In this document: positions 2,079 to 54,000 of the stretch, in pieces | How positions within the stretch are numbered: the stretch's first letter is position 1 | How the letters are laid out: every line of letters begins with the position of its first letter | Origin: Balanoglossus misakiensis | Taxonomy: Eukaryota > Animalia > Hemichordata | Direction of reading: 5' to 3' | Length of the DNA stretch: 64,000 nucleotides | NCBI GenBank assembly: GCA_040954595.2 | Contig: CM082594.2 | Location: 394,208-458,207 of the forward strand | Position numbers and translations under genes: made by a program | Notes under the pieces: model-generated | Told to the model about the DNA's origin: nothing | The model's database searches: none | The model's input: the letters and a program-made list of their open reading frames with translations, nothing else

Positions 2079-5000
2079 TTATGGTGTAATACGTGTACTA
2101 CTTTCCTCAAGCAAGCACAGTTTGCGAACATCTCTACGCAATCTTCCTGTTTCAGTCTTCACTAGGACCTGGCGCACATTGCCGTACTGATCTGGGTAAG
2201 TTTGCTGAACTAGTCCTTTTGACCACTGTCCTCTTGGGATATTTTCCTCTACCACGATAACCAAATCTCCAACAGTCAGATTTCTCTTGGGCTTCAACCA
2301 CTTCTGTCTCTGCTGAAGGGAAGGCAGGTATTCGTGTAGCCATCGTTTCCAAAACGAGTTCGCTATGAGATTAGCTTGGTTCCTTCTGTGATTAGCTGTA
2401 CTGGTCGTGACAGTGTCTGCAGGAGATGTGCATGGATTCGGCCTCAGTAGTAACAGGCTATTAGGCGTCAGTGCTTCAAGGTCATTCGGGTCATCTGATT
2501 GACGGGTCAAAGGTCGATCATTGATAATCTTCTCCACCTCCGCCAAGACAGTAAGTAAAGTTTCGTCGTCAATTAGTTGGTTTCCAACGAGTGCTCGTAG
2601 GATTTTCCGCACTGAACGTATCATCCTTTCCCAAACTCCTCCAGTATGACTGGCTGCGGGTGCATTGAAATACCATTGGATATCCCTCTTGCGTAGACTA
2701 TCAGTTATCTTCTCTTGATTCCAACTCGCTAGAGCTTCTTTGATTTCAGTTTCCGCTCCCCGGAAATTTGTTCCGTTGTCACTGTATACCGTTTTTGGTG
2801 GACCACGTCTGCTGACAAATCTCCATACTGCCTGAATAAATGAATCTGTGGATAAACTGTGGGTGACTTCAATATGCACAGCTCGTATGGCGAGACAGGT
2901 GAATATACATCCGTATCGTTTGGACGTTCCTCTTCTCCACTTGACTTTCGGAGGACCAAAGAAGTCGATTCCCACTGCAGCAAATGCACTCTCACCTGGA
3001 GTAACTCTTGGGGTTGGAATTCTTCTGACAGTAGCTTGGCCTCTCAAAATCCAATATTCTTTTCGGATTCTGGATAACACATGGGTGGTTCCTACGTGAC
3101 CTTCCTGCTCATGGAAAAACTGAACAATTAATTCGGTCACTTGATGATTATGGGGTAGAATAATAGGATGTTTTGTGGTTTCATCTATGGGGGCGTTGTT
3201 TAGTCTTCCACCAACGTGTATACTGCCATCTTTGTAGATTGGACTGAGTCTGCAAAGTGGACTGGTATATCCTTCAGAATCTGGTTTTCTGCTTGGATTC
3301 TTCAACTGTGTTGATATTTCCTTAGGAAACGCTTTCCGTTGAACGACTCTAATGACTTCGAAGGTAGCATCGGACACTTCTGACACCGTTAGAGCACCAA
3401 CCGGAACTTTACCATTTCCGCCATTCTCAATGCGAGCTCGGAGATACTTCTTGTATCGTAAAATCCAAGCGACAGATTTGCAAAGTTTGTACCATGACGA
3501 AAATCTGTGAATTAACGAATGGATGATATCAGTGTCATCTGTCTGGTTGCTGTTTACCACTGCGCATACCTTTGCCATTTTCAATTCGTTGTCCTCATCC
3601 GATATTCTTGGTAAGTCGGTAGGTTGGGTTGGCCAGTTTCCTTCAGATTTCCAGAGAAATTCTGGACCTTCGAACCACAGTTTGGACTTCGCTTTGGCGG
3701 CTTTCAAGGTAATACCTCGGGAGGCACAATCAGCTGGATTGAGTTGTGAAGGAACATGATGCCATTGTGACGGTAGTGTTGCATCGTGTATTAGTTGTAG
3801 GTGGTTGGCTACAAAGGTCTTGAAGCGTCTTGTTGAGCTGCAGATATATTGTATAACAATGGTAGAGTCTGTCCAGAATCGCTCTCGATGGATAGGAAAT
3901 TGAAGTTCTTCTTTTATCTGTTTGCTGACTTTAACGGCCACTGTTGCTGCTGTCAATTCCAATCTTGGTACTGTAATGGTCTTCAGTGGAGCAACTCTAG
4001 ATTTGCCAGTCACGAGGCTGCAGTGAAAGTTACCACCTTTGTCAGTAAACCGTAGGTAGGAAACAACCCCATATCCTTCCGTTGAAGCATCGCAGAAATG
4101 ATGAATTTCTATAGATTGTGGCTGGCCAAAACCTGGAGGTGTGTAACACCGTGGAATTACCATGGCTTTTAACATCGGTAACTTCTGTAACCATTCACGC
4201 CAAACAACTAGATATTTCACTGGTATGGCTTCATCCCATCCACATCCTTCTTTGCATAATTCTTGTAATAAGCGCTTAGCCGGCAATACAAATGGTGCAA
4301 CAAATCCTAGTGGGTCGTACACAGATGCTACAACTGAGAGAATCCCTCTTCGAGTTTCACTTTTACTTTCCTTGCCAACTCTGAAGCTCATAGTATCTTC
4401 TTGAATGTCCCATTGTACACCAAGAGCTCTGTCAACTGGTAAGTCTTCCAGGTCTAAATTCATCACAGATGGCGCCCTTTCTTCTGACGGGATGGAGGAC
4501 AATACTTCTGTGCAATTAGAAATCCATTTGGTCAGATGAAATCCACCATTAGACAAAAGAGCTGAAACTTCAGTGATGAGTCTCTTGGCTGTGTCCACGG
4601 CAAGTACTGATTTTAAGAAATCATCCACGTAGAAATTTCTGTAGACAGCATCTATGATGTCCGAGTCGAAGTTACTTCTATTGTCATCAGCTGTTCTCCG
4701 GAGGGCGTATGCTGAACAACTAGGTGATGATGTCGCGCCAAACAAATGAACAAGCATTTGATGATCGACGGGCTCCTTCGTGAGGTCACCGTTAGGCCAC
4801 CATAGGAATCGCAGGACATCACAATCTTCGGGGTCGACATGAACTTGGTGAAACATTTGCTTGATATCAGCAACCACTGCAACAGGATACTGACGGAACC
4901 GTAGCAAGACTCCAACCAAGGAATTGGTCAAATCCGGACCCTGCAGGAGTTGATCGTTCAGTGAAGTTCCTCCACATTTGGCAGCACAATCGAAGACGAC

Positions 5001-8000
5001 TCTCACCTTTTCTGGTTTCATGGGATGCGTCACCGGATGATGAGGTAGGTACCATAACCGTCTATCGTCTTCTTTGTTTTCATCAGATACTTCTTTTGCA
5101 TGACCTTGTACAATATAGTCTTGTATAGTTGTACTGTACTTTTCATGGAGATCTGGATCTTTAAGTAGACGTCTTTTGAGTAGGTTGAGTCGTTTCTCAG
5201 CTACATGCCTGTTATTTGGTAAGGCTGGTTCTTCAAATTTCCAAGGTAGCTTCAACTGATAGTGACCATTTTGTAGACGGACAGATCGATCCATTATCGC
5301 CTTTGCCCTTCGGTCTTCTAATGACATGCATTCTTTAGTATCCACTAGATTTACGTTGAAGTCGGCATTGTACATCCTTTCCAATTGTGATGAAATGGAC
5401 TCCATACCTTTGATAGAAGTATCACTGTCGATGATCTGGTCCATATTGATACAGTTGATTGATGAGTTGGTTTCTTTCTTTCCTTTCATCGGCCCAATCA
5501 ACGTCCATCCAAGTAATGTTCGGATTGCGTATGGTTGTTTTCTCCCGGCACGTCTTTCCTCCAGGACCCAGTGTGCTTCTGGAATGTCGTTACCGATCAG
5601 GATTGTGACTTCCTTGTTCTGCAATTCTGGTAATTCAACATCCTTCAGATGAGACCATTCCTTCGTATCCTCTGCTGTTGGTATACTGTTTGCCGTTATG
5701 GGAAGTTTGTCCGTCGTCCATACCTTATCAAGATGAACACTTTGATTTCTATGTAGACCTCGTACATCTAATTTAACTTCACGTCCATACTTCTTCGTTT
5801 CAGCATCGAGTGTGGAAAGTGTATATGTAATGGGTTGTCCACCCAAACCAAGTCTGTCTGCTAGAGATGAGAGACATATTGTTGTGTCTGAACCATTGTC
5901 CAGGAATGCATAAGTTTCAATCTCTGCTCCTCCCTCCACTCCACTTACTCGGACTGGTACAACTTGTAGGCTGATACGTGGCTTGTTTGTCCTGGTTGCT
6001 TTACAATGAACGGTGTTACCGGCCCCATTGGTTACTTCAGAATTCCCGTCACTTTTCTCGTCTTTATTCTTCCCAAGACGTGTTGTGGGTGGAGCTGGTC
6101 TACCACTTCCACTGGGATACACTTCATTTGACGACTGGCTAGGATGTGACGATACTGGGTGTAGTAATGGGTGGTGAAGTCTTCCACAGTCAGTTACTGG
6201 ACAAAACAATCCACTTTTGCAGTTTTTAGCGAAGTGTCGAGGGGTTGCTTCCAGACAACAATCACAGAGGTTCTGTTTTCGCACAAACGTTTTCTTCTCC
6301 ATGAACGACTTCCTGGCAAACTTCCGGCATCTCTGCAGTTGGTGTTGTCCTTGGCAGAAAAGACATCTAATTTCTCTCTTGGATTGGCAGTAGGGTTTGT
6401 CTTGCGTCTTGCCGTACATTTCATGACTTACTTGTGTGGTCAAAGTAGTAGCCTTGGTGAATTGTTTGACCCTGGACTTTACGTCTCTCTCTGGTTCTGG
6501 TTTTGATCCAACCAACATCCCGAATCTTGTATTGGCCAAGGCTGCTCGCTTCTCCAAAAACGCTGTCAGATGGATGAATTCTGGTTCAATACCGGAGTAA
6601 ATCATTCTTCCAGCTTCTTTTGCCCAATCTCCTTGTAGAAATGTAGGTAGGCGTCTCACTATCTTCTCCAATGTATCCATGGAGTTCAGATCAGCGGTGT
6701 ATTTCATTTGGCTGGAACACATATGACAATTATTCATGTCACGTGCCAACTGTAGCAACTTTGATGTGTCCGTGGCCTTGATCTGTGGTCCCTTGATGAC
6801 TTTGTCTATGGTGGCATGGACGATCGTGTGTTTCTGGCCGAAATTCTGGTATAATATTTTCCTTGCTTCAGTGTAACCTTGTTCTGGAGGTAGAATCACA
6901 CAGTTCTTGATTGCTTCTTTGGCTGGTCCAGTGCAGTATTGGATGAGATAAGCCAATCTAGTGCCATCATTGGTTGTTCCCTTTACAATGTTTATCTCAA
7001 AATTTCTGATGAACGTGGGGTACACTACTGGGTCACCATTAAACGATAGGAATTCCCGCTTCGGCAAATTCAAACTAGTTACAAGTGCTTGCGTGGCTTC
7101 ACTCTGTTGTCTTATCATACTCTGTAGGATTTCGTGTTGCCCATCCCGCAATGGACTTGGTTCATTTCTATAAAGTTGTTCCCCAATATTGTGGTCCACG
7201 GGCTGCCATTCTGGTGCATTCGGATTTAATGCTGCCACATTGCCCTCCAACTGTTTCACATTTTCGGACAGCGGTCTGTCTTTAAGCAAAGTTGTTATTG
7301 TGTTGAACTGGGAAACTTCTACTGGGGGACCACTCGACAATACATGGGGGTGATAATCTTGAAAAGACTGGAAATACCTGTCAATCTTCTCACTTGGACT
7401 GGTCATCTTTGCTTCACTTGTATCAACAGAGTATTCTTCGGAATGAAACGAAGTTCCCTCTTCTGCTAATTCAGCCTCCATTTCAGCCTGTTTTAACTTC
7501 TGTTGAACGTCTAGAATCTTCAATGTTGACTGCATCTTTATTTCTTCTTCTCGAAGTCGCAGATCACGAAGCTTGGCTTTGGCTTCTTCTTCTTGCTGTA
7601 TCTTTTCAAGTTCAAGCTGGGTTTCCAATATCTTCCTTCTTGCAATTCTTGAAGCTCGACTTGCCTTTGAACTCGATAAAGAACATATATTACTTGTCTG
7701 CCGGTTACCATTTCCATAAGACGTTTGACTATGTGATTTCTTTTTTACAGATTTTACCTGGTCCTTGGTAGAGTGACATGAATTTTTGGAAGCCGCTGAA
7801 CCGTTGACATCATCCTCTTGTGAAGCTGGTGGCACTTCTGGCTCCAACCCACGTGACGGAGTTGTTATCGTGATTCGATGAGACGAAATCCAGTTCTTCA
7901 GGCGTTGTTCCAGACACTCTTTTCTGTTAACTTCAGATTCGTGTTCAAGTCGTACACTTTCTTGTTCGGACCTTGAAAGATGTTTCTGATATTCATAACA

Positions 8001-8267
8001 AGTATTTGTATATGAAGTAAAAATCCTATCCGAGTCTTCTTTCTTTTTGGTAACTGCTTGGTAGTCAGGCGACGACATTAACATGGTCTCTACATCCATG
8101 TAAATACGTGTCATATGGCCGCGGTAAGCGATAATTGATCTCCTTAATTTGGGAACTAAATTTTCTTCTCTTGTTGAGCTAGCTGTTTTTGATGAACTGC
8201 TACTCTTGACGGAGACAGGGCCTGGTGCTGCTGGAACGTGGAACATCTCGTCGTTTCCAGTTGCCAT
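2079..8267 (-). CDS. BEL/Pao Gag-Pol polyprotein (Gag, Zn knuckles, aspartic protease, RT, RNase H, integrase), 2062 aa
   Basis: Gag core (FNGDPVVYPTF...LIQYCTGPAKEAI), three Cys/His knuckles (CLFCQGQHQLQRC, CDCCLEATPRHFAKNC, CPVTDCGRLHHPLLH), protease FLDNGS, RT (WYLPHHPV, RVVFDCAA, ADIKQMF, FYVDD), RNase H (HHFCDAS, VPRLEL, WTDSTIV, NPADCASRG), integrase (GIDFFGP, SDNGTNF, WERMI), C-terminal FWKRWLHEYLPSLQQRQKW. PR-RT-RH-IN order in one ORF is typical of BEL/Pao. Confidence 0.96.
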   Translation of the reverse strand: MATGNDEMFHVPAAPGPVSVKSSSSSKTASSTREENLVPKLRRSIIAYRGHMTRIYMDVETMLMSSPDYQAVTKKKEDSDRIFTSYTNTCYEYQKHLSRSEQESVRLEHESEVNRKECLEQRLKNWISSHRITITTPSRGLEPEVPPASQEDDVNGSAASKNSCHSTKDQVKSVKKKSHSQTSYGNGNRQTSNICSLSSSKASRASRIARRKILETQLELEKIQQEEEAKAKLRDLRLREEEIKMQSTLKILDVQQKLKQAEMEAELAEEGTSFHSEEYSVDTSEAKMTSPSEKIDRYFQSFQDYHPHVLSSGPPVEVSQFNTITTLLKDRPLSENVKQLEGNVAALNPNAPEWQPVDHNIGEQLYRNEPSPLRDGQHEILQSMIRQQSEATQALVTSLNLPKREFLSFNGDPVVYPTFIRNFEINIVKGTTNDGTRLAYLIQYCTGPAKEAIKNCVILPPEQGYTEARKILYQNFGQKHTIVHATIDKVIKGPQIKATDTSKLLQLARDMNNCHMCSSQMKYTADLNSMDTLEKIVRRLPTFLQGDWAKEAGRMIYSGIEPEFIHLTAFLEKRAALANTRFGMLVGSKPEPERDVKSRVKQFTKATTLTTQVSHEMYGKTQDKPYCQSKREIRCLFCQGQHQLQRCRKFARKSFMEKKTFVRKQNLCDCCLEATPRHFAKNCKSGLFCPVTDCGRLHHPLLHPVSSHPSQSSNEVYPSGSGRPAPPTTRLGKNKDEKSDGNSEVTNGAGNTVHCKATRTNKPRISLQVVPVRVSGVEGGAEIETYAFLDNGSDTTICLSSLADRLGLGGQPITYTLSTLDAETKKYGREVKLDVRGLHRNQSVHLDKVWTTDKLPITANSIPTAEDTKEWSHLKDVELPELQNKEVTILIGNDIPEAHWVLEERRAGRKQPYAIRTLLGWTLIGPMKGKKETNSSINCINMDQIIDSDTSIKGMESISSQLERMYNADFNVNLVDTKECMSLEDRRAKAIMDRSVRLQNGHYQLKLPWKFEEPALPNNRHVAEKRLNLLKRRLLKDPDLHEKYSTTIQDYIVQGHAKEVSDENKEDDRRLWYLPHHPVTHPMKPEKVRVVFDCAAKCGGTSLNDQLLQGPDLTNSLVGVLLRFRQYPVAVVADIKQMFHQVHVDPEDCDVLRFLWWPNGDLTKEPVDHQMLVHLFGATSSPSCSAYALRRTADDNRSNFDSDIIDAVYRNFYVDDFLKSVLAVDTAKRLITEVSALLSNGGFHLTKWISNCTEVLSSIPSEERAPSVMNLDLEDLPVDRALGVQWDIQEDTMSFRVGKESKSETRRGILSVVASVYDPLGFVAPFVLPAKRLLQELCKEGCGWDEAIPVKYLVVWREWLQKLPMLKAMVIPRCYTPPGFGQPQSIEIHHFCDASTEGYGVVSYLRFTDKGGNFHCSLVTGKSRVAPLKTITVPRLELTAATVAVKVSKQIKEELQFPIHRERFWTDSTIVIQYICSSTRRFKTFVANHLQLIHDATLPSQWHHVPSQLNPADCASRGITLKAAKAKSKLWFEGPEFLWKSEGNWPTQPTDLPRISDEDNELKMAKVCAVVNSNQTDDTDIIHSLIHRFSSWYKLCKSVAWILRYKKYLRARIENGGNGKVPVGALTVSEVSDATFEVIRVVQRKAFPKEISTQLKNPSRKPDSEGYTSPLCRLSPIYKDGSIHVGGRLNNAPIDETTKHPIILPHNHQVTELIVQFFHEQEGHVGTTHVLSRIRKEYWILRGQATVRRIPTPRVTPGESAFAAVGIDFFGPPKVKWRRGTSKRYGCIFTCLAIRAVHIEVTHSLSTDSFIQAVWRFVSRRGPPKTVYSDNGTNFRGAETEIKEALASWNQEKITDSLRKRDIQWYFNAPAASHTGGVWERMIRSVRKILRALVGNQLIDDETLLTVLAEVEKIINDRPLTRQSDDPNDLEALTPNSLLLLRPNPCTSPADTVTTSTANHRRNQANLIANSFWKRWLHEYLPSLQQRQKWLKPKRNLTVGDLVIVVEENIPRGQWSKGLVQQTYPDQYGNVRQVLVKTETGRLRRDVRKLCLLEESSTRITP

Positions 8268-8375
8268 GACTTTCTAATGTATCTGCTAGTACACGGTTAC
8301 ACCAGGTTTCAGTCCAACGTCATCTGAGAACTATGTAGGATCCAATTCCTACTTGCATGGGCCCCTCGACACTCG

Positions 8376-38800: not shown

Positions 38801-41742
38801 AATTTCATACATCACCAGATATCCAAATATGAAAAAATGATTTAGATTTTAGATGATTGTCCAAAATTAGCTGATATCTAATAAATGTAGTATTGAACCG
38901 TTCTGTCCCCCCCTACATTATATGCGGTACGCCGATGTCAGCTTACCCGGCAGTACTGCAGGCCGTGCCCCCAAATAACGTCGGTGTGTGAAACGCCCTG
39001 GTTAAATTCGGGCTTTCTCTATAAATTGACAGGCAATAATGCAGTCCTACCCGAACAAATGTCGAGTGTTGACCCGCTGTGACTTTCCCTCTTCGGTTTG
39101 CCCGACTTAGCCAACGTCTTTGTACTAATGTGTCGGGTCTTTTGCAGAGCCAGGCCGAAGGAAATCCGACTTGATCACCGTTGCTAACGAACGCTAGTGT
39201 CTGTCATGGTGTGCCGGGGTTTTAGAAGAGCCAGGCCGTAGGAGATCTGACTTGATCATCGTGGTCAATGTACGCGTGTTTCCGCTCTAAAGTGCCGGGG
39301 CTTCAGCTAAACCATGCCGTAGGAAATCCGACGTAATCACCGTTGATAACTTACGCCAGTCTGTGTCATATAGAGCCGGTGCACCAGCCGAATCACGCCG
39401 TAGGAAATCTGACTTGATCAACGTGGTCAATGTACGCCTGTTTCTGCTCTAGAGTGCCGGGGCTTCAGCTGAGCCAGGCCGTAGGAAACCCGACGTGATT
39501 ACCGTTGTTAACTTACGCCAGTCTGTGTCCTATATATAGTGCCGGGGCATCAGCCGTGCCAGGCCGAAGGAAATGTGAGTAGATCAACGTGGTCTCTGTA
39601 CGCGTGTTTCTGCTCTAGAGTGCCGGGGCTTTATCCAAGCCATGCCGTAGAAAATCTGACTTGATCACCGTTGCTAACGTACGATAGTGTCTGTCATAGT
39701 GTGCCGGGGTTTTAGTCGAGCCAAGCCGTAGGAGATCAGACTTCATCAACGTGGTCTCTGTACGCGTGTTTCTGCTCTAGAGTGCCGGGGCTTTATCCGA
39801 GCTATGCCGTAGAAAATCTGACTTGATCACCGTTGCTAACTTACGCTAGTGTCTGTCATATTGTGACGGAGATTTAGCCGAGCCAGGCCGTAGAAAAATC
39901 GACTTGTTCAACGTTACCAGTGTGCAACTGTTTCTGCTCTAGAGTGTCAGGGTTTTAGCCGACTTGTGCTGTAGGAAATCTGAGTTGATGAACGGGAATT
40001 CAATGTTAGAAAACCCGTGTGTAAAGTATCTCTACCCGTTTGAAACTAAGAAAAGAATTTATTCTTATTTATTTTGTGAAACAAGACAATTTTTCGAAAA
40101 AAAGTCGAAAATGGTAATTTTGTCTTGGGTGATTCAAATTATACCACATTTTCTGGAATTTGCAGCACTTTTTACAAGAGAACGACACTTCATGCTCCAT
40201 AATATTTCCGAAAATGAAGAAAAGAGTTTATTTTTTATGATTTTTTAAAAATGTACCATTTTGTCAAAATATGGCCAAAATGGCTATTTTTTCTTGAATT
40301 CCGTCAATATCTCTGCATTTTTGGAGTGGTCGAAAGTTTTAACATACAATCAACATGTCATATATGATCAGGGCACCAAATTCGAAGAACGAAGGTTTTT
40401 TTATTTTATTTTTCTAAAAATGACATTTTCAAGGAAAATTTGGTAAAACGCAATTTTGTCTGCAGTGAGCCAAATTAGACGGTCTTTTGTGGAATTTGTA
40501 TCGATATATATATACGAAGAGCATTCTATACTCCATCAGATTTCCGAAAATGTAGAAAACAGGTATTTTTTGTAATTTTCAAAAATTTACCATTTTGACC
40601 AAATTGTGGTTAAAATTGTTATTTTCGTGTTGAATGCCGCCAGTGTCACTGCTTTTAAAAGTCATAAAAACTTTTAACATGCAAGCAATTGCTTATATAT
40701 GATCAGGCCACCGAATTAAAAAAATAAAGAATGTTTTGCCTAAAAATGACCTTTTTGGTGCAAAAACGATTAAAACGCAATTTTGTATTAAATCAGCTCA
40801 TTCAGAGTGCATTTTTTATAATCAGCACCATTTTTACATATATTGGAAATTTCATACATCACCAGATATCCAAATATGAAAAAATGATTTAGATTTTAGA
40901 TGATTGTCCAAAATTAGCTGATATCTAATAAATGTAGTATTGAACCGTTCTGTCCCCCCCTACATTATATGCGGTACGCCGATGTCAGCTTACCCGGCAG
41001 TACTGCAGGCCGTGCCCCCAAATAACGTCGGTGTGTGAAACGCCCTGGTTAAATTCGGGCTTTCTCTATAAATTGACAGGCAATAATGCAGTCCTACCCG
41101 AACAAATGTCGAGTGTTGACCCGCTGTGACTTTCCCTCTTCGGTTTGCCCGACTTAGCCAACGTCTTTGTACTAATGTGTCGGGTCTTTTGCAGAGCCAG
41201 GCCGAAGGAAATCCGACTTGATCACCGTTGCTAACGAACGCTAGTGTCTGTCATGGTGTGCCGGGGTTTTAGTCGAGCCAGGCCGTAGGAGATCTGACTT
41301 GATCATCGTGGTCAATGTACGCGTGTTTCCGCTCTAAAGTGCCGGGGCTTCAGCTAAACCATGCCGTAGGAAATCCGACGTAATCACCGTTGATAACTTA
41401 CGCCAGTCTGTGTCATATAGAGCCGGTGCACCAGCCGAATCACGCCGTAGGAAATCTGACTTGATCAACGTGGTCAATGTACGCCTGTTTCTGCTCTAGA
41501 GTGCCGGGGCTTCAGCTGAGCCAGGCCGTAGGAAACCCGACGTGATTACCGTTGTTAACTTACGCCAGTCTGTGTCCTATATATAGTGCCGGGGCATCAG
41601 CCGTGCCAGGCCGAAGGAAATGTGAGTAGATCAACGTGGTCTCTGTACGCGTGTTTCTCCTCTAGAGTGCCAGGGCTTTAGCCAAGCCATGCCGTAGGAA
41701 ATCTGACTTGATCAACGTTGCTAACGAACGCTAATGTCTGTC

Positions 41743-41775
41743 CATAGACAGTGGAGAAAAGACGGACGTGCTACT
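41743..41775 (+). repeat. Left terminal inverted repeat (33 bp)
   Basis: CATAGACAGTGGAGAAAAGACGGACGTGCTACT, exact reverse complement of 51024-51056. Confidence 0.98.
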
Positions 41776-42009
41776 AGTGCATTTCTTTTGTAGTAACGTC
41801 TGTTGTAATCCCTTTTAATCCACCAAACAATAGACAAACTCATCATCACCTCTTTATCGCCGTCTGGCGATAAAACCTCGCATAATATCGCAAAACGCGA
41901 GAGTTACCACGAGAAAAAGCGTAATATTTCGTGCTACGCGAGACGTTATTTGGCGAGATTCGGGTCACAGGTCATAAGTTGTTTACAAGCGGCTCGCAGC
42001 ACATACACA

Positions 42010-44343
42010 ATGGCTTCCGTCCAAACCGATAGCGAATTTGTTGCCGTTTTTACTGATTCCGAATACAGCGATTTCGATTATTCAGGGAGCGAGACTAGCG
42101 ACGACGATGATACATCGCCACTTACCGACGACGAGTTACAAGAAGGCATGCAGCAAGCTCCTAAACGTCGAGACTTGAGCTATCTTGATCGATACATCGT
42201 TTGCGTCGGTGGTGATACAAAAACTATCAAATGTGACGTTTGTGACAAAACTTTCAACAGAAAGCAGAGTTGCAAGCAGCATTTGATAAATGGCCATGGG
42301 CTAGTCGGTAAGTTTTACTGCTATTTTGTTGATCGAAATGTGGAGCAAGGCGTTGGTCACAAGCTGAAACTACACCGCCTGGTACCTGTACATTTTTACT
42401 GTCTATGATTTTTAAAGACATCCCATAATCATAATGATCGTCGCCAAGCATGGATATGAATGAAGAATGTTTTTCAAGGCCAAAAATGTCATGCGAAAAA
42501 AATGAGCAACATATGGGCTGCACAGATAAACAGATTGTTATGAATATGGGCAAAGCAGACTAATGGGTCCCCTTCAAGTTAATGGTAGCAATTTCCCTTG
42601 GTAGTTTACATTGTCTAAGCTGATCAGGATCAGACATACAACTGTGCCACAAGTTTTCTAACAACTAACTAAAATGAAAAACTGGAAATACAAGTAAAGA
42701 AAGATATGCTATATTATGTTAAAATGAAATAAAAGTGTTATGAGTAAAACACTTCAGACATATTTCAAAATACCATAGACACTAGGCAGCCATTGATTAT
42801 TACTGTTGATGCCAGAAACATTTCTCTGTATTTTCCCTCCATTATCAACATTTTATTATTATTCTATCCCTGTCGTGCTCACAACTCATTATTGATCATT
42901 TTTCCTTTCCAGGACCAGACATGGTGAAAAGAACAGACTGTGATCCAAAGAAAAACGTTTTGAAAGGAGCTGGGGTTTCCAAGAAGATTAACAACAAAGG
43001 TAAGCTAAGAACACATATTTAGTAACTGTGATTATTTATCTTTCAAAATATGATTTCATTTCTAATGTGAGACAAAGACAGTAGAGAAACAGTACTCCCA
43101 TACTTAAAAGGGACACTCACAGTTTCATAGCTGTCTATGCTGCCACTTTGGGGGAAATTTCACTGTTTTGCTTTCCATCATAAATATTGGCAAAACAGTG
43201 GTGGCAATTTACAGTTACTGTGGCGTTATTCTGAATATGTAAGATAAAACTTTCTTTTCATTTTTGTTGTCGGGCACCAGTGTCACTGACCAATCAACTA
43301 TAACAATATTTTTCCCCACAGAGAACAGACCCACCAGGAAACTACAAATGACAATGGATGATGCAACGCAGGAAGCCCAACGGATCCTTCTAGCCTCAAT
43401 CAAACCACTCACCGTTGACAGCATTTTCAACAGTCCTAGATTACCTGGTGTTTCCAAAGTTAAAGTTGTTGCAAAGAAACTGTGTGATACATTGTCAAGT
43501 GATCCAGTAAGTGTAAAAAGTGAACTGGATGCAGTGATACAAGTGCTGTGGCCTGCTGTTACTGGAGGAGACAGACAGTTCCTTCCTTCGCGGCGCCGAG
43601 AAGAGATGTTTCGCATATTCCACTCTTTGCGCCTGGATCCAGAATTACGGAAATGTCTACACAAGCTTTGTTCAAAAGTTGGGTTGACAGTATCAGGACC
43701 TGTTCTCATGATTTTAGCCAGGCACATTTTTGAAGGTTTAGTTTTAGAAAGGGAAAAGGTCACCACAATTGATGAGAGCTTCAGCGGGGATATGAGTCGT
43801 GTTGAAGAAAACATTCTGAGGTATGCCTGTGGTTACATCCCTATGGCTCTCATATCTCAACTTCAGAAACGTGGATCAGGGTTTAGAAGCATGGTAAAGT
43901 GTTTGGAGGGTATGAGTACAATTCAGCCTGTATCAACATTTTTGTCTTACACAACAGAATGGGTCAACAAAGAGAACCGGGGCGGTCTGTACACTGTGAA
44001 TGACACAACTTATATGTTTTTTAGGAGGGTAGAGTATTTTGTAAGGAAACACAACAAGGCCCTTTTTACCAGTGGTGATTTAAACATTCACGATTTAGTA
44101 AGCAAGGATGTTACAGGTGATGCAGCTGCAGTGCAGCACTGGTCACAATTATCTGTAGGCCTTGATGAGGGTCAGTCATTGAAGCTGATGTTAATGTGTA
44201 GTAAAATGTGGATCAATATCAGAGGCCATTCTGCAGCTAGGAAATTAGTTGAGGGCCTTAAATATACTGAGGGAATGAAGAATCGTAGTCAGAAAGCACT
44301 TCGAAAAGAACTTAAACAGCTTAATACAGATGACAACAAGTAA
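42010..44343 (+). CDS. P-element second gene: C2H2 zinc finger plus P-transposase C-terminal-domain-like protein, ~468 aa, 3 exons
   Basis: Predicted exons 42010-42307, 42913-42999, 43322-44343 joined by GT-AG introns (gtaagt/ccag, gtaagc/acag), both phase 1, 1407 nt with no internal stop. Acidic N-terminus, CDVC-x12-H-x4-H finger, then EENILRYACGYI...EWVNKENRGGL...WINIRGH...KALRKELK. AATAAA at 44460 and 44467. Confidence 0.82.
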
Positions 44344-44772
44344 AGTTTGTCAAATCCGACCATTATTTATTGCACCATATATTGTAAACTGTCAGGTTGA
44401 AAATTTTCTTTGAACATGTACACGTTTAAGATTGAAAAATGTACTAGCATGTGTTGAGTAATAAAGAATAAATTGCAGTACAGTGTATTTCGTAAGAGTG
44501 TGCTTTTAACAGTGAATGTGATCCTCTAACAGTACACAGAGCATAATCCTCCAATGATGAATGATTCAGATTTTTTTACTCCACCAACAGAAACTGTTCT
44601 GAGAGGTATGCATACACACCTAAAATATTTTACAGAAAAAATAAAACAGTGTTGTTCTCCAACTAAACTTTGAAAGCAATGACTCATTGAATGGATGATG
44701 GCATCACCGGCGGCAACAACAACATCAGTTTTCAGCAACAATGGATTCGAGTGAAAAAAAAAAACAACAAAA

Positions 44773-45029
44773 ACTGTTCGCTCCTATTTCTGTTCTGTGT
44801 ATCTTAAATGTTTGGTACCCAGGACAGAAACTTACAGCTAATGTCAGAGGGTAAAAAAGGACTGTTTGTTCACTAATGAATTCCAGTGAAAGTAAAGAAA
44901 ATTCATTGCCCACTGAAATTCCCCCCCCCCCAAAAAAAAACATCAACAACGACTGTTCGCTCACTATTTCTGTTCTGTGTATCTTAAATGTTTGGTACCC
45001 AGAACAGAAACTTACAGCTAATGTCAGAG
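44773..45029. repeat. ~78-bp direct repeat, two copies (44773-44849 and 44952-45029), between the convergent genes
   Basis: actgttcgctc(a)ctatttctgttctgtgtatcttaaatgtttggtacccag(g/a)acagaaacttacagctaatgtcagag occurs twice. Confidence 0.9.
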
Positions 45030-45121
45030 TGTGACATAAATCTCACTGTCATCTGCTATTACTCATTCATCTCAACATAACAATTTCTGTGACATATCCA
45101 CTGAGATAAATTCAAACAGTC

Positions 45122-48100
45122 CTACGGATGTGAATGTCTGGTATGGGAACGTCTTGGCAGTGCTGTGTTATCCAGCGGCGCATCAGCCATTGTTGTAACA
45201 TTGGCTCCTCTCACAGACAAAACGTGTGAAGACTTCAGCCGAAGAGCATTGGCATTTTGGCAGAACTGTTGCACTGAGGGTGCCTCATTCCCACCCTTCA
45301 TTTGGCGTTGATTCCCGAAATAGGACTCCAAAGGATCCTGGTTGAGTTTCTCTGAGAGAACACACTCCACACCCGGTTGGTTGAGTAGGTACCTTGCCAA
45401 GTCAACAAATGACTTCACTGTAGAATGGAATAAAAAGAATGCAGTATAGGATGGTTAGTAAGGGAAGGATTTCAGTGGTCGTAATAAATAGTGTACAACA
45501 ACATCACAATACCATGTACAGGATTTGTTAAATTGGCAGGTTACACTAGCACTCAGTAACTCTTCATTAATTTTTGCTTGCATTTTAGTACGGTTTGATA
45601 ATTAAAAAATATTTTGCACTCACAGCATTTTTTACCAGCCAAGCAGCCTGTAAAGCCACCGTTTCAAATTGGTCTTTTTGGACAGAGAGATTATAGCCAA
45701 CCAAAGTGAAAACTTACTAGAGACAAATTCTCATTATAGGGGTTGCCACTAACACACACTTGGTTGTATTAACAGTGCCTCCTCAGTTACAATGAGAATT
45801 AACATTCCACAGGGAGTGATTAAAAAATTAGAGAATGAAGTAAATTATAAAGACAAAATATTGATATATTTTATTACAGACAGTGGCACAAGATTTCCAC
45901 TGTCTATGATTTTATGTTATTTACCTGACATGCGGATACCTTCCAAGGTTTGTTGACTTAGCTTCATGCGGCCTTTGTCCCGTTTTGACAGATGAACTCT
46001 GGCATCAACTCTAGCATCCCAGTCGCTAAGATATGTCAGGAACTCACCCTCAAGCCACTAGATGGGTTGAAATGTGAAGAAATCACAATATTTTATTTCA
46101 TTAACATGTACATTGCAGCTCATAACTTGATCCTATTATACCTATCAATTTCTGAATATGTCTTATCAAAGTTCAAAGTTATATGCATACATATATAAGG
46201 CAGCGGAAAGCTCTCCCTTCACAATTCATTTTTACTACCGAATGAACAGAACTAAAATTCTTTGTGAAATATGCTACACTGTTCACAGCATCTCTTGTCC
46301 TTAATTGGCAGAGAGGCTTGTGTCTTAAATGAAAAATGTACTGATATAATGAATAATGCCGGAATGCATGTATGTTATAGACAACAGGAAATATGAGATG
46401 GTATTTTTTTACATCATGACAATAGGTTATTGAACATAAATTAAAGACATATACAGATACATATACTTACAGTCAGTCTTTCATCGTCTGGTGATCTGTA
46501 GGGCAACAGATTCGGTTTCCTCTTTTGTATGCCTTCTTTGGTACTTCGAACATTCATACAATCAAAGAACTTGTCAAAATGTCGTATAAATTCAATGGTG
46601 GCTCTGTGACCATTGCCATAGAATGTCTCTATGGCATTTGCCACTTGTGTACTAAGCACCTGTGAGCAAGTAGATATAAAAATATATCACTTTTCTGTTT
46701 CACAATTGCCATCTTGTATTAATTTTATAATAGCAGGATGATCAGACAATTCACTTGCATCACACAACATATCTTATTATCATGATATATGACCTAACAT
46801 TATCTCTTCTATGTGGTGTCAAACACAGATCTCAAGACCTTGCTAATAAACTGTATTGTGGGAAAATATTTAACAAATGGAAATAAATTACTTACTTGAA
46901 CAGCATACTTCACTTTCATCCTGGAGAAAGATGTTAGATGCACATGTTCATATCTCAGCTTGTTGCAGAGAAACAATCCTCCTCTTTCCAGATCTGCTTT
47001 GTACATATCAATGACAGTTTGCCAGTTGATCGGTTCACCATTCTAAGTGAGAAAAAAAAGGAAAATGCAATCATTAATTAACATAAAAAATGACCCATTG
47101 TTTTTATTAAAACTTTATAAGATCTTGATATATTTTTGCATAAATTATTTACATATAAGCATAATGGCAATAATAAGATAATAAGAAAAAAGCTAAATAT
47201 TTGTTTCTATACACACTGTAAAAAGTACAGAATTATAATAGGCTTTTACCCATAACATTCTTTTCTTTGAATGGCATCCCGAATTTGACCAACAATTCCT
47301 AGTGGTTTTCATTAGGTGTGGTACGTCTGAAAAGAAATATATCCGCCGGTCCTCTTCTGTACAGTAGTTTTCGGTCCAGTAGACAACGTCTGCAGCAGCC
47401 CTTGGTCCCATTGCATGCAGCTTATAAAATCGCCTGTTAGCTGACGCACCATCAGAAGTAGAAGCCATTACTCTGAACCCTATTAGTTCTAGAAATTCAA
47501 TTGCTCTCCATATCAAGGGGAAAAGATAGTCTGCCGTTATGGTGTTTGTGGGAAAATGGGCTAGTGGATACTGGAGCCTGAGTGTTATGCCTCTAACCAT
47601 GAAAGTAAGGATGTAGCGGGCAACTTCAGGAGTTGGTTTCTGACCATCAGTCTTCAGGGTCTTCTCATACAACATGAGCGAATTGCTGAAGTCCCCAATG
47701 TTGACGAAGCCAATGAGTTGGCCACTACTCTTGACATAAACCAGATCGGAGGAGATGCGCAACTCATCATGAAGAAGGACAACATACTTCTGGTGTTCTT
47801 CCAGCTGGCTGAAATTACTTTCTCGCAGTAGCTGATCAAAGGCTGCTTCTGTGAAACCAGTGGTTGCCTTAGTCCAGTGCGTGTAATCAATAAGTGTTCT
47901 TTCATGGGGTAATTCAAGAACACCAGAGTCCCGTAATGTGTTGTATGCTGCACTCGATCGTAAACGCAGATTCAAACACCATTTTATAAACATTGGGTGC
48001 CAGCGATGGCCTCGTTTATCAGCACATCGAAGGGCTTCTTTTTGCTGTTCCCAAAACAACCTGCGAAATGTCCCTTCTGTATTTTCTTCCTGTATGACGC

Positions 48101-49379
48101 TATCATATTCACTTATGATCTGCTTCATACTTGATGAGGTCTCACTATCCAAACACTCCCCTTCTTGATTGATGCTCTCCTGCAGCTTTACTCTCAGCCT
48201 GGCTTCACTGGCTTCTACTCGGCGTTTTGCTTTTATTATATTGTGTGTTCTCTGGTAAAGTTCATCAGCTGTTAAAGCTGATAGCGGGACAGAGCTACTG
48301 GCATGTACTCTATGGGCTGCTGGATCGTCTTCATGGCTACCTGCATTTCTCCTCTTCTGTCTGCTAAGCACAGCAAACATTGTTTTCCTTAGCTGCTCGC
48401 ACGGGCTGCATCGAACTTTGCTGGTGGTCAATTCACAGTTGGCCGCTCGCAGGGTTGTGTTATACCATTTGCCTCCTTCGCCTTCAAGCAGTACCTGCTG
48501 ACGAACCATTTGCCCAGTAAGTCCTCTACCATTCTGGATCTCTGGAACTGACCAGAACTTTTCATCAGGATTTCCCGAACAGATGCGCATTTCATGAATT
48601 TCTTGGACTACTGACAGGACAACAGAAGGACTTTGGAGCAGAGTAGGATATTGGGGAAAAACTGTCTTGACATCCATGACTTGGCCGAAGACTCGTACTT
48701 GCCATGAGCCATCTTGCTGGACTGTAAGTGACTTCATGATCACCGACTCCTGACCAACTTGGGACTGGACAAACAGGAAGTTCAGTTGAGAGTTGTCTGA
48801 CTGGTCTACCCATCCTTTTGGTAGGCAACAGGTCTTCAGGACAGCTCGGATCGCTTCAAAATTCATTGGCATGTAAGAGCCAACATTTAGTCCCGGAAAA
48901 CTGGATGATCTAGCAGGATGGACTTGCGATTGCTTGTCAACATGTTCTTGGTGTCTATATCTTCCGAACGCCGACAGTGGAGGGGGGTTTGCTTGCAGGA
49001 CAACCATGGGTGGCACATCGTTGCTTTCTTGAAAATCTGGCTTGTGAATGTCCTGGCTTTGGGATATGTCTGACATACCATGTTCAGCAGTTGTTACGGT
49101 TGTAGTGTTTTCTTGCTGTGACAAACCATTCAGTGCTTCCACAGTGTTAAGCCATAGTAGCTGTTCATCGACACTGGGGATCACATTGGAGCAGGACAGT
49201 TCATCTACACAGTCATTAAGGTTTTCAACACGTGCAGGTTCACACTCATGACAATCTGGTGAATCAACCAAAGCCTGATTCTCATTATCCAGCAGCTTCT
49301 TCTTTTTCTCTTTCGATCGTCTAGTTTTATTCTTTTTATAATTCTTCCTGTGCTGACTGATACCATACTTGTAGGGCAT
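45122..49379 (-). CDS. P-element (THAP9-like) transposase, ~964 aa, 5 coding exons
   Basis: Predicted exons 49379-47250, 47042-46896, 46659-46471, 46057-45925, 45417-45122, all GT-AG with compatible phases (0,0,0,1). Motifs: RWHPMFIKWCL, SSAAYNTLR, LPHERTL, VLLHDELRI (D), STSDGASANR (D), FSDVPHLMKTTRN, RMKVKYAVQVLS, DKFFDCMN, NQDPLESYFGNQRQ (E). Confidence 0.93.
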
Positions 49380-50802
49380 GACAGTATTCTGTTAGAATAG
49401 AAAAGAAAGAATAAGCTCACTGAAATATCGGAAGATAATATTGTATATGCATGCACCTTACCTAAATAAATAGTTTTCAAAACTTAAGGCCTTATGGATA
49501 CTAGGAAAAATGTTTTTGATCTGGTAGCAGAATTGCAGGCCAACAATGATATTGCGCCTTGGTAAAAAAAAGCTCGGAATATTGATTGATTTTAATTAAC
49601 AGAAATTTTGATAATGCATGAAGTTGTGATCAAATAACTCAATAACCACAGGCTTTGTTGTTGCAGTCCCACATAAATCATTATAATAGCCTATGAAATA
49701 ACAAAACAAGCTCCACTGTACATTAAAAACTAATCTGTCTTTTCACAGCTTTAAATTGTTAGAATCATCAAACATCTCAAGTCCATGAACAGACACAGTT
49801 GAGCCACTGTCTATCTTAGAACTCAAGGCTAAGTTCATGGATGACCCAAATCAAATGTGACCTGGCACCCAAAGGTCATCACTCAAAAAAAATGTACAAA
49901 TTGTCTTTCTGGCATTGATATACAAAAAAATCACCATGCAAAATATTGACTTCAAACAGATTAATTGTCCGTTCGTGACATGTTTTTTTCGATGACTATA
50001 CACAATCCCCGATCGGTGATAAGTACGCAAAAATGACCGGATACACAACAGCTGGAGTTGCTGTACCAAGTTTCTTTCTAAACAAAGAGCAGTGTATTCA
50101 ATAGGGAATTACGGGAAGAAAGATGGCGCCCGCTGACGCGACAACACCATATTTCCCGTCCGATAAAACCATTTCTGGGCAAGCTAGGCACACGAAACAT
50201 TCATGTTGCAAATCCCAACATCCTAAAGGACGACTACATATATACAACTTTCTGTTTTTTGTTACGAATTTATCTCAAAAGGGGGAAACGTAACACTAAT
50301 GACGCACTCACCCTACCCGACAAACGTACGAGGCCTCACGAGGTAATTCTACATAAAAACGCACGAATTTAAAAACACAAGTCGTATTTTTTATATTATT
50401 ACAATATGTACACCATAACGACAAACAAAGATAGCCACAAACCCGAAATTATGAAGAAATCTGACTACGTAATCGCACTTTTCTGCACCTCAGCAAAGAC
50501 AAACTGGTCGGAAATAGGCGTCCCAAACAAATATTTCCCCCCATAAAAACGACGTTTCTGTCACATTTAGCCACAAACAAAATCCCCATTGCAAATGCTG
50601 ACATTCTAAAGATTGATCACAAAAAAACGATTTTCTGTTTCATGTCATAAATTTGTCGTAAAAGGGGTAAACTCACACCATAGCCACTGTCTATGCTCAC
50701 ATATCGCTACATATGTGGACACGAGTAGTCAAACATGACGACCAGCGATTGTATTTTACATCGAAGGTAACTATCTACACAAAAAAAACTAAACACACTT
50801 AC

Positions 50803-50950
50803 CTACTAGATGTATAACTGGTCGAACAACAGGCACGGGGTAAAGGAACCAGGGGAAAAACGAAAAACAATGGCAAAAAGGGAACACGCGTAGTAGATGC
50901 GGTACGGTCAAATCCAAGATGGCGACTGACTGTTTACACGGTGTTGCAAC
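50803..50950 (-). promoter_or_regulatory. Putative transposase promoter and non-coding first exon
   Basis: YY1-like CAAGATGGCG at 50915-50924; minus-strand donor AG|GTAAGT at 50802; acceptor ...ttctaacag 9 nt upstream of the ATG (exon start 49388). Inference, no transcript data. Confidence 0.45.
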
Positions 50951-51023
50951 ATGGGTATTACCGGGCCGTTACCCAACAGACGTTGCTCCCGGATTATCGC
51001 CGTTTTCCTTTGTTGTCTGCGGC

Positions 51024-51056
51024 AGTAGCACGTCCGTCTTTTCTCCACTGTCTATG
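51024..51056 (-). repeat. Right terminal inverted repeat (33 bp)
   Basis: AGTAGCACGTCCGTCTTTTCTCCACTGTCTATG followed by TSD GTCTGTC. Confidence 0.98.
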
Positions 51057-54000
51057 GTCTGTCAAAGTGTGCCGGGGTTTTAGTCGAGCCAAGCCGTAGG
51101 AGATCAGACTTGATCAACGTGGTCTCTGTACGCGTGTTTCTGCTCTAGAGTGCCGGGGCTTTATCCAACCCATGCCGTAGAAAATCTGACTTGATCACCG
51201 TTGCTAACGTACGCTAGTGTCTGTCATATTGTGACGGAGATTTAGCCGAGCCAGGCCGTAGAAAAATCGACTTGTTCAACGTTACCAGTGTGCAACTGTT
51301 TCTGCTCTAGAGTGTCAGGGTTTTAGCCGACTTATGCTGTAGGAAATCTTAGTTGATGACGGGAATTCAATGTTAGAAAACCCGTGTGGAAAGTATCTCT
51401 ACCCGTTTGAAACTAAGAAAAGAATTTATTCTTATTTATTTTGTAAAAAAGACAATTTTTCGAAAAAAAGTCGAAAAATTGCAATTTTGTCTTGGGTGAT
51501 TCAAATTATACCGCCTTTTCTGGAATTTGCAGCACTTTTTACAAGAGAACGACACTTCATGCTCCATAATATTTCCGAAAATGAAGAAAAGAGTTTATTT
51601 TTTATGATTTTTTAAAAATGTACCATTTTGTCAAAATATGGCCAAAATGGCTATTTTTTCTTGAATTCCGTCAATATCTCTGCATTTTTGGAGTGGTCGA
51701 AAGTTTTAACATACAATCAACATGTCATATATGATCAGGGCACCAAATTCGAAGAACGAAGGTTTTTTTATTTTATTTTTCTAAAAATGACATTTTCAAG
51801 AAAAATTTGGTAAAACGCAATTTTGTCTGCAGTGAGCCAAATTAGACGGTCTTTTGTGGAATTTGTATCGATATATATATACGAAGAGCATTCTATACTC
51901 CATCAGATTTCCGAAAATGTAGAAAACAGGTATTTTTGTAATTTTCAAAAATTTACCATTTTGACCAAATTGTGGTTAAAATTGTTATTTTCGTGTTGAA
52001 TGCCGCCAGTGTCACTGCTTTTAAAAGTCATAAAAACTTTTAACATGCAAGCAATTGTTTATATATGATCAGGTCACCGAATTAAAAATATAAAGAATGG
52101 TTTGCCTAAAAATGACCTTTTTGGTGCAAAAACGAATAAAACGCAATTTTGTATTAAATCAGTTCATTCAGAGTGCATGTTTTATAATAAGCACCATTTT
52201 TACATATAATGGAAATTTCATACATCATCAGATATCCAAATATGAAAAAATGATTTAGATTTTAGATGATTGTCCAAAATTAGCTGATATCTAATACATG
52301 TAGTATTGAACCGTTCTGTCCCCCCCCCCCCCCCCTTACATTATATGCGGTACGCCGATGTCAGCTTACCCGGCAGTACTGTAGGCCGTGCCCCCAACAA
52401 ACGTCGGTGTTTGAAACGCCCTGGTTAAATTCGGGCTCTCTCTATAAATTGACAGGCAATAATGCAGTCCTACCCGAACAAATGTCGAGTGTTGACCCGC
52501 TGTGACTTTCCCTCTTCGGTTTGCCCGACTTAGCCAACGTCTTTGTACTAATGTGTCGGGTCTTTTGCAGAGCCAGGCCGAAGGAAATCCGACTTGATCA
52601 CCGTTGCTAACGAACGCTAGTGTCTGTCATGGTGTGCCGGGGTTTTAGAAGAGCCAGGCCGTAGGAGATCTGACTTGATCATCGTGGTCAATGTACGCGT
52701 GTTTCCGCTCTAAAGTGCCGGGGCTTCAGCTAAACCATGCCGTAGGAAATCCGACGTAATCACCGTTGATAACTTACGCCAGTCTGTGTCATATAGAGCC
52801 GGTGCACCAGCCGAATCACGCCGTAGGAAATCTGACTTGATCAACGTGGTCAATGTACGCCTGTTTCTGCTCTAGAGTGCCGGGGCTTCAGCTGAGCCAG
52901 GCCGTAGGAAACCCGACGTGATTACCGTTGTTAACTTACGCCAGTCTGTGTCCTATATATAGTGCCGGGGCATCAGCCGTGCCAGGCCGAAGGAAATGTG
53001 AGTAGATCAACGTGGTCTCTGTACGCGTGTTTCTGCTCTAGAGTGCCCGGGCTTTATCCAAGCCATGCCGTAGAAAATCTGACTTGATCACCGTTGCTAA
53101 CGTACGATAGTGTCTGTCATAGTGTGCCGGGGTTTTAGTCGAGCCAAGCCGTAGGAGATCAGACTTCATCAACGTGGTCTCTGTACGCGTGTTTCTGCTC
53201 TAGAGTGCCGGGGCTTTATCCGAGCTATGCCGTAGAAAATCTGACTTGATCACCGTTGCTAACTTACGCTAGTGTCTGTCATATTGTGACGGAGATTTAG
53301 CCGAGCCAGGCCGTAGAAAAATCGACTTGTTCAACGTTACCAGTGTGCAACTGTTTCTGCTCTAGAGTGTCAGGGTTTTAGCCGACTTGTGCTGTAGGAA
53401 ATCTGAGTTGATGAACGGGAATTCAATGTTAGAAAACCCGTGTGTAAAGTATCTCTACCCGTTTGAAACTAAGAAAAGAATTTATTCTTATTTATTTTGT
53501 GAAACAAGACAATTTTTCGAAAAAAAGTCGAAAATGGTAATTTTGTCTTGGGTGATTCAAATTATACCACATTTTCTGGAATTTGCAGCACTTTTTACAA
53601 GAGAACGACACTTCATGCTCCATAATATTTCCGAAAATGAAGAAAAGAGTTTATTTTTTATGATTTTTTAAAAATGTACCATTTTGTCAAAATATGGCCA
53701 AAATGGCTATTTTTTCTTGAATTCCGTCAATATCTCTGCATTTTTGGAGTGGTCGAAAGTTTTAACATACAATCAACATGTCATATATGATCAGGGCACC
53801 AAATTCGAAGAACGAAGGTTTTTTTATTTTATTTTTCTAAAAATGACATTTTCAAGGAAAATTTGGTAAAACGCAATTTTGTCTGCAGTGAGCCAAATTA
53901 GACGGTCTTTTGTGGAATTTGTATCGATATATATATACGAAGAGCATTCTATACTCCATCAGATTTCCGAAAATGTAGAAAACAGGTATTTTTTGTAATT

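Follow-up and report, generated by a model that had tools for sequence, protein, structure and literature searches.

Can the C-terminal domain (CTD) of a P transposase, an enzyme described as a single chain of six domains, be kept as a separate gene beside the catalytic gene? The question is raised by a P element at positions 41743–51056 of a 64,000-nucleotide stretch of the hemichordate Balanoglossus misakiensis (GenBank assembly GCA_040954595.2, contig CM082594.2, positions 394,208 to 458,207 of the forward strand), the whole of which is called the window here. A reading made from the letters alone (the sequence-only reading) had proposed that two convergent genes encode a transposase split between them, with the CTD moved to the second gene. 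From our analysis, we consider it probable that the element is an intact two-gene cut-and-paste transposon of the P superfamily, in which gene A encodes a catalytic transposase without a CTD and gene B a protein of predicted CTD-like fold, likely a separate subunit that joins A at the transposon ends.

The two convergent spliced genes of the sequence-only reading were recovered with open frames. Gene A comprises five coding exons (964 aa) preceded by a non-coding one, and gene B, convergent to it, has three exons (468 aa). The features of the element, whose terminal inverted repeats (TIRs) were confirmed as perfect, are as follows.

41736–41742, left target-site duplication, 7 bp
41743–51056, P element, 9,314 bp, both ends exact
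41743–41775, plus strand, left TIR, 33 bp, perfect
42010–42307, plus strand, gene B exon 1, which encodes the start, an acidic tract and a C2H2 finger (matching zf-met at E 2.7e-4, marginally over the cut-off)
42913–42999, plus strand, gene B exon 2: basic linker, its joint to exon 3 seen in run X3
43322–44343, plus strand, gene B exon 3: N-terminal helical domain (~43354–43755), CTD-like domain, long basic helix and stop
43786–44259, plus strand, gene B segment superposing on the CTD: B residues 284–441 on Drosophila P transposase CTD residues 617–734
44344–45121, region between the two stops, entered by the B transcript to at least 44822 and by the A transcript to at least 44973
45122–45417, minus strand, gene A last exon: D894, catalytic E897 (45326–45328), 67-aa tail and stop
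45925–46057, minus strand, gene A exon 5: insertion domain, both junctions seen in run X3
46471–46659, minus strand, gene A exon 4: GTP-binding insertion with S762, F791, D792 and N795
46896–47042, minus strand, gene A exon 3: GTP-binding insertion with K738, K753 and V754
47250–49388, minus strand, gene A exon 2: ATG at 49379, four-cysteine N-terminal domain, coiled coil, region resembling a helix-turn-helix, and N-terminal part of RNase H with catalytic D538, D643 and D685xxH688
50803–50897, minus strand, gene A exon 1: non-coding, no ATG, its 5' end set by the reach of the contig
51024–51056, minus strand, right TIR, 33 bp
51057–51063, right target-site duplication, 7 bp

Transcript evidence came from run X3, a small run of the same sample which is labelled 'DNA?' (no RNA run is listed) and which we treated as containing cDNA for the sole reason that its contigs join at splice sites. 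Four junctions are joined in these contigs, three in gene A (49388/50803, 46057/46471 and 45417/45925) and one in gene B (42999/43322). The same contigs gave no spliced evidence for the A junctions 47250/47042 and 46896/46659 or for B intron 1, whose donor is crossed unspliced by one contig (42040–42466). The case for exon 1 of B is therefore one of homology: full-length relatives in Saccoglossus, Glandiceps, Branchiostoma and Exaiptasia carry the same acidic tract and C2H2 finger. Where the 3' untranslated regions of both genes meet, a pair of 69-nt direct repeats (44784–44852 and 44964–45032) lies 180 bp apart; a contig of run X2 skips these 180 bp, so that either copies of the element differ or the contig collapsed.

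If the two genes were joined at the RNA level, by trans-splicing or through unseen exons, an ordinary single polypeptide would result; the two pieces together do give the canonical domain order, and rare joined RNAs could escape the contigs. Against this, one A contig with two splice junctions reads unspliced past the stop to 44973 (149 nt beyond) and meets no further exon, so that this transcript holds no CTD exon, as the sequence-only reading had expected. B starts from its own codon and has N-terminal domains of its own, and in Glandiceps talaboti the A and B relatives are separate RefSeq proteins. A search for fused A–B forms found no B match among proteins of 834–2,380 aa, which is weak evidence. 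We regard joining at the RNA level as very improbable.

Elements of the P superfamily are expected to have TIRs and a target-site duplication of 7–8 bp. Gene A passes the Pfam cut-offs of three TNP-like families (PF21787, PF21788 and PF21789), and a profile of 100 of its relatives matches the Drosophila P transposase (6p5a_A) at E 1.8e-27, which bears out the complete P-type aspartate–aspartate–glutamate (DDE) core and insertion domain claimed for A. The alignment reaches fly residue 559 of the 569-residue chain, so the RNase H fold of gene A is complete. The catalytic D538, D643, D685xxH688 and E897 align with the fly motifs, and the catalytic D, D and E with C/DxxH are described as the signature of the P superfamily (PMC9587614). 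All eight GTP contacts described for the fly enzyme (K385, K400, V401, S409, F443, D444, N447 and D528; PMC7776569) have counterparts in gene A by motif and spacing (K738, K753, V754, S762, F791, D792, N795 and D894). Its core, TIRs and duplication place the element in the P superfamily.

From the canonical P/THAP9 type it departs in having no THAP domain, no CTD in cis and a 7-bp duplication. No THAP domain was matched by Pfam in exon 2 of gene A or in three full-length relatives, and the CxxHF motif is absent from gene A and 18 relatives. In place of THAP, gene A carries an N-terminal alpha/beta domain (48060–48887, minus strand; model with a predicted local distance difference test score, pLDDT, of 92), which had no match in Pfam, Foldseek (E 0.001) or ESM Atlas. 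Its four cysteines are conserved in 99–100% of 96 aligned sequences; the domain is likely a zinc module and may be the end-binding module standing in for THAP. At the other end, the polypeptide was said to stop about 65 aa after the Glu of NQDPLE; it is indeed truncated there, the distance being 67 aa after E897. Among 120 of the 215 A relatives, 12 reach the Glu motif, and in 10 of these 12 the stop lies 60–66 aa after it with a shared tail (the other two stop at 20 and 50 aa). The CTD is absent from the gene A polypeptide and likewise from its relatives, and the position of the stop corresponds to the linker between RNase H and CTD in the fly enzyme, which is described as flexible and disordered (PMC7776569).

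Comparisons with other genomes show that the A+B layout is conserved, in agreement with the sequence-only reading, which had expected related elements to carry B. The closest full-length A relative (54% identical), from Glandiceps talaboti, and a B relative (37%) follow one another in accession and locus numbering and are placed on a contig of equal length. When A was the query, B lay directly after A on the opposite strand at six of nine loci; two of the remainder have only N-terminal A fragments, and one is interrupted by what we take to be a retrotransposon integrase. A query with the Pfam family holding the catalytic Glu gave 11 loci in four other assemblies, a set which overlaps the former and of which one assembly gives eight: B is convergent at 8, present as rearranged pieces at 1, and absent from 2, namely the interrupted locus and a deleted copy. 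None of the 11 has an in-frame CTD, and no intact A-only element was found among them (two were unable to show B). On short metagenome contigs found with B as query, the end of A faces B in 3/6, two contigs end at B, and one has ~500 nt without A. No B or A relative was found in viral contigs, and no genome contig carried the B patterns.

TIRs of the form CAT(A/G)GA with exact 7-bp duplications occur in four complete A+B elements and in four derivatives with deletions, and the duplication is 7 bp in all eight related TIR pairs that show an exact one; a further locus (L003) has a 35-bp TIR and no duplication. Across eight elements B is 18–56% identical, with synonymous sites near saturation, and purifying selection on B is seen in the closest pair (proportion of nonsynonymous differences, pN, 0.25 vs proportion of synonymous differences, pS, 0.73). 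The identities of A and B are correlated (rho 0.73; 28 non-independent pairs), which is what linkage alone would predict. Decay of one gene was rejected, since the stop position and the tail are conserved in relatives; the two-gene P lineage is thus a conserved one. The idea that the related loci come from prokaryotes was also rejected despite their bacterial or archaeal titles as metagenome-assembled genomes (MAGs): introns sit at the profile positions of gene A, so the loci are likely eukaryotic host DNA. The MAG-titled assemblies G001–G004 (L007–L014 and L016–L035) include long intron-bearing eukaryotic contigs.

Two side observations concern the history of the relatives. Near-identical 1.8-kb non-autonomous copies (L030:3592-5390 and L031:3588-5385) carry the TIRs of the family, a piece of B and different 7-bp duplications, which is indicative of recent mobilisation in trans in that assembly. 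In another case a complete A+B element (L009:8467-14118) is nested in a small element whose TIR, of 17 bp, begins with TAG and whose duplication is 9 bp.

Whether gene B is the counterpart of the missing CTD was assessed by structure and by sequence profiles. A model of B (exon 3; 131 sequences; pLDDT 92) was aligned to 48,161 representative chains, and the top match was the CTD of the P transposase itself (6p5a_B; Z 9.4, root-mean-square deviation 2.9, 118/118 residues), the only chain at Z >=8; the second-best chain had Z 6.3. At the level of sequence, 18 of the 131 B members match PF12596 (Tnp_P_element_C) at E <=1, compared with two or fewer for any other non-zinc-finger family; at E <=0.03 there are 9 matches among 145 proteins, all within profile positions 59–98. 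The B protein of the window has itself no PF12596 match. The B motifs quoted by the sequence-only reading are present in its order; as to the fly CTD motifs which it had named, the first helix is tied to a P profile by sequence and the others are not. The model, with a weak sequence-profile signal beside it, supports the predicted folding of B like the P transposase CTD.

The rest of B shows both likeness and departure. An extra helical domain of ~140 residues precedes the CTD-like part, and a long basic helix ends the protein (median net charge +7 in 110 members); the fly CTD is likewise described as extending a basic helix toward target DNA (PMC7776569). The DNA-binding finger ascribed to B is indeed encoded in exon 1, but a C2H2 finger was found in only 4/153 relatives, many of which are single-exon calls, and in four compact elements (L001, L009, L012 and L013) no more than ~230 bp separates the TIR from the B domain, too little for a finger, which is therefore optional. 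Clustered at 50% identity, the B family found with a profile of seven relatives counts 5,121 clusters, and none of its best 150 is longer than 493 aa.

Several points weigh against B being a CTD subunit. A Z below ~13 may reflect an arrangement common among helical proteins, and the identity between B and the CTD is 13%. Foldseek, named as a check by the sequence-only reading, returned nothing for the B model at E 0.001, and it was the wider structural alignment that ranked 6p5a_B first; ESM Atlas gave no usable match for either query. Searches of PDB sequences miss the fly CTD whether started from B, from two profiles of B or from two B members, and the PF12596 matches are all short and under the cut-off (best 20.6 vs 22.6 bits). 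Five stretches carry B fragments with no A match, two of them TIR-bounded deletion copies, and the expression evidence comes from run X3 only. In addition, a preprint reports that fly transposase without its CTD performs excision and integration as the wild type does, and that human THAP9 without its CTD integrates ~60% better (10.64898/2026.08.31.747927).

Two explanations would draw on these points. The likeness of B to the CTD could be chance or convergence, with B an accessory protein unrelated to it and comparable to the second genes found in Kolobok lineages. The all-helical fold, the low identity, the missing Foldseek and PDB-sequence matches and the ~140-residue domain that the fly CTD lacks would suit this; yet the best of all the chains compared is exactly the domain missing from A, over its whole length, and the profile signal leads to the same Pfam family, so that we find a chance or convergent likeness very improbable. 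The other explanation, which deserves more weight and is still less favoured than the subunit reading, accepts B as a CTD homologue acting as regulator: A would transpose alone, and B would tune or repress it, e.g., through binding to the ends or to target DNA, or through a shift in integration. As the preprint finds the fly CTD dispensable, B may be a regulator and not required; the separate promoter would permit separate dosage, and some B proteins have an acidic tract and a C2H2 finger. What speaks against it is that B is kept next to A across elements so divergent in B, with no intact A-only element at the catalytic-Glu loci. Such retention fits a factor aiding the spread of the element, although self-limiting repressors can be kept too.

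In a two-subunit transposase, A would cut and join DNA through its DDE site, with GTP held in the insertion domain as in the fly structure, and B would supply the CTD in trans, docked as the CTD is in the fly enzyme, with RNase H on one side and the GTP-binding domain on the other, where it would contact transposon and target DNA. The break between A and B would fall in the stretch corresponding to the disordered fly linker, and the conserved tail of A together with the N-terminal helical domain of B is a candidate docking surface replacing the covalent link. We infer the binding of A to B and the two-subunit mode of working from homology and retention; in architecture and homology the sequence-only reading is supported, and its subunit function stands as the same kind of inference. 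Beyond this element, we lean slightly towards a large and old animal P lineage with its CTD in trans, drawn from a family of more than 5,000 clusters that is listed as uncharacterised; the single chains of fly and THAP9 could then be fusions, and B could switch transposition. The CTD being 'moved' to the second gene, as the sequence-only reading has it, presumes a split of one chain, whereas the two-gene state may equally be ancestral.

The insertion itself is clean. When the empty site was rebuilt assuming a 7-nt duplication, it matched the surrounding satellite at 21 other positions (<=3 mismatches in 50 nt), whereas rebuilding with 0, 6 or 8 nt gave zero satellite matches; as only the 7-nt version matches, the element inserted cleanly and duplicated 7 bp of the target. 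The host of the insertion is an array of satellite units of ~2.05 kb, which the P element interrupts. An assembly-join artefact was rejected, as DNA contigs of run X1, in three pieces that overlap, span 41746–51053 and differ by one letter, covering nearly the whole element (X1 is possibly the source data of the assembly). Copies of the outer 12 nt of the TIR, with at most one mismatch, occur in introns of the element at 50684–50695, 49804–49815 and 45897–45908, all in the orientation of the right end and none elsewhere in the window; 0.035 would be expected by chance (200 simulated sequences, maximum 1) vs three observed. Weaker copies lie at 42396–42407, 42774–42785 and 45875–45886. The internal copies are possibly transposase-binding sites or cryptic ends.

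Some further observations concern the surroundings. One X3 contig links the left end (41743) to a flank that is not satellite and another links a TIR start to 47738, which we read as signs of further insertions and of an internally deleted copy in B. misakiensis. The satellite occupies window positions 1–2042 and 9200–64000 in units of ~2.05 kb with a block of 81-bp sub-repeats, and its orientation flips near 11 kb; it is not an array of a known RNA gene, since an Rfam scan of the window found no match. The same satellite holds a BEL/Pao retrotransposon (2079–8273, minus strand) with an open frame of 2,064 aa, in which Peptidase_A17, DUF1759, DUF5641, reverse transcriptase and integrase domains were found.

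The CTD contacts DNA in the fly structure, and its retention as a separate conserved gene makes its role directly testable by comparing A alone with A+B. The copy described here offers a ready substrate for such a test because it is intact and spliced. A protein family that is very large and has no name also gains a likely function, and tools could draw on the built-in control point of a two-part transposase. If the reading holds, a eukaryotic DDE transposase would here be split between two of its domains, in contrast to RAG, Kolobok and other two-gene elements, where the second protein is unrelated.

Among known systems, the Drosophila P transposase (PDB 6P5A/6PE2; PMC7776569) shares with this element the DDE RNase H core, the GTP-binding insertion with its eight GTP contacts, TIRs of ~31–33 bp and, by prediction for B, a helical CTD fold with a basic end. 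It differs in that here a second, convergent gene would carry the CTD together with an additional helical domain, a four-cysteine domain is found in place of THAP, the duplication is 7 bp as against 8 bp, and the length is 9.3 kb as against 2.9 kb. Vertebrate THAP9 and the zebrafish P-like elements have the same catalytic core family, and some A relatives are labelled 'THAP9' in databases; unlike A+B, THAP9 is described as one chain with both THAP and CTD (PMC7776569, PMC10824691). CTD folds are stated to occur solely in P/THAP9 homologues (PMC7776569, PMC10824691, 10.64898/2026.08.31.747927), to which a free-standing B would be a counter-example if the structural match holds. Full-text literature searches, whose scope did not extend to Repbase, Repbase Reports or Dfam, where such elements may already be entered, found no description of a two-gene P element. 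Galileo also belongs to the P superfamily and, unlike the element here, is described with a THAP domain and very long TIRs. It reportedly makes a 7-bp duplication and has a single transposase gene. The parallel with ProtoRAG drawn by the sequence-only reading holds for the convergent two-gene layout, to which it was confined; the second protein, RAG2, is of an unrelated fold. ProtoRAG/RAGL (PMC7204232) and KolobokP (PMC9587614) each have two opposite-strand genes in one DDE transposon, RAG1L and RAG2L being convergent, and the second protein of KolobokP is a His-Me nuclease, again of unrelated fold (PMC9587614). The likeness to both is one of layout only, for the second protein here, unlike theirs, appears to be a homologue of one domain in the single-chain transposase of its own family.

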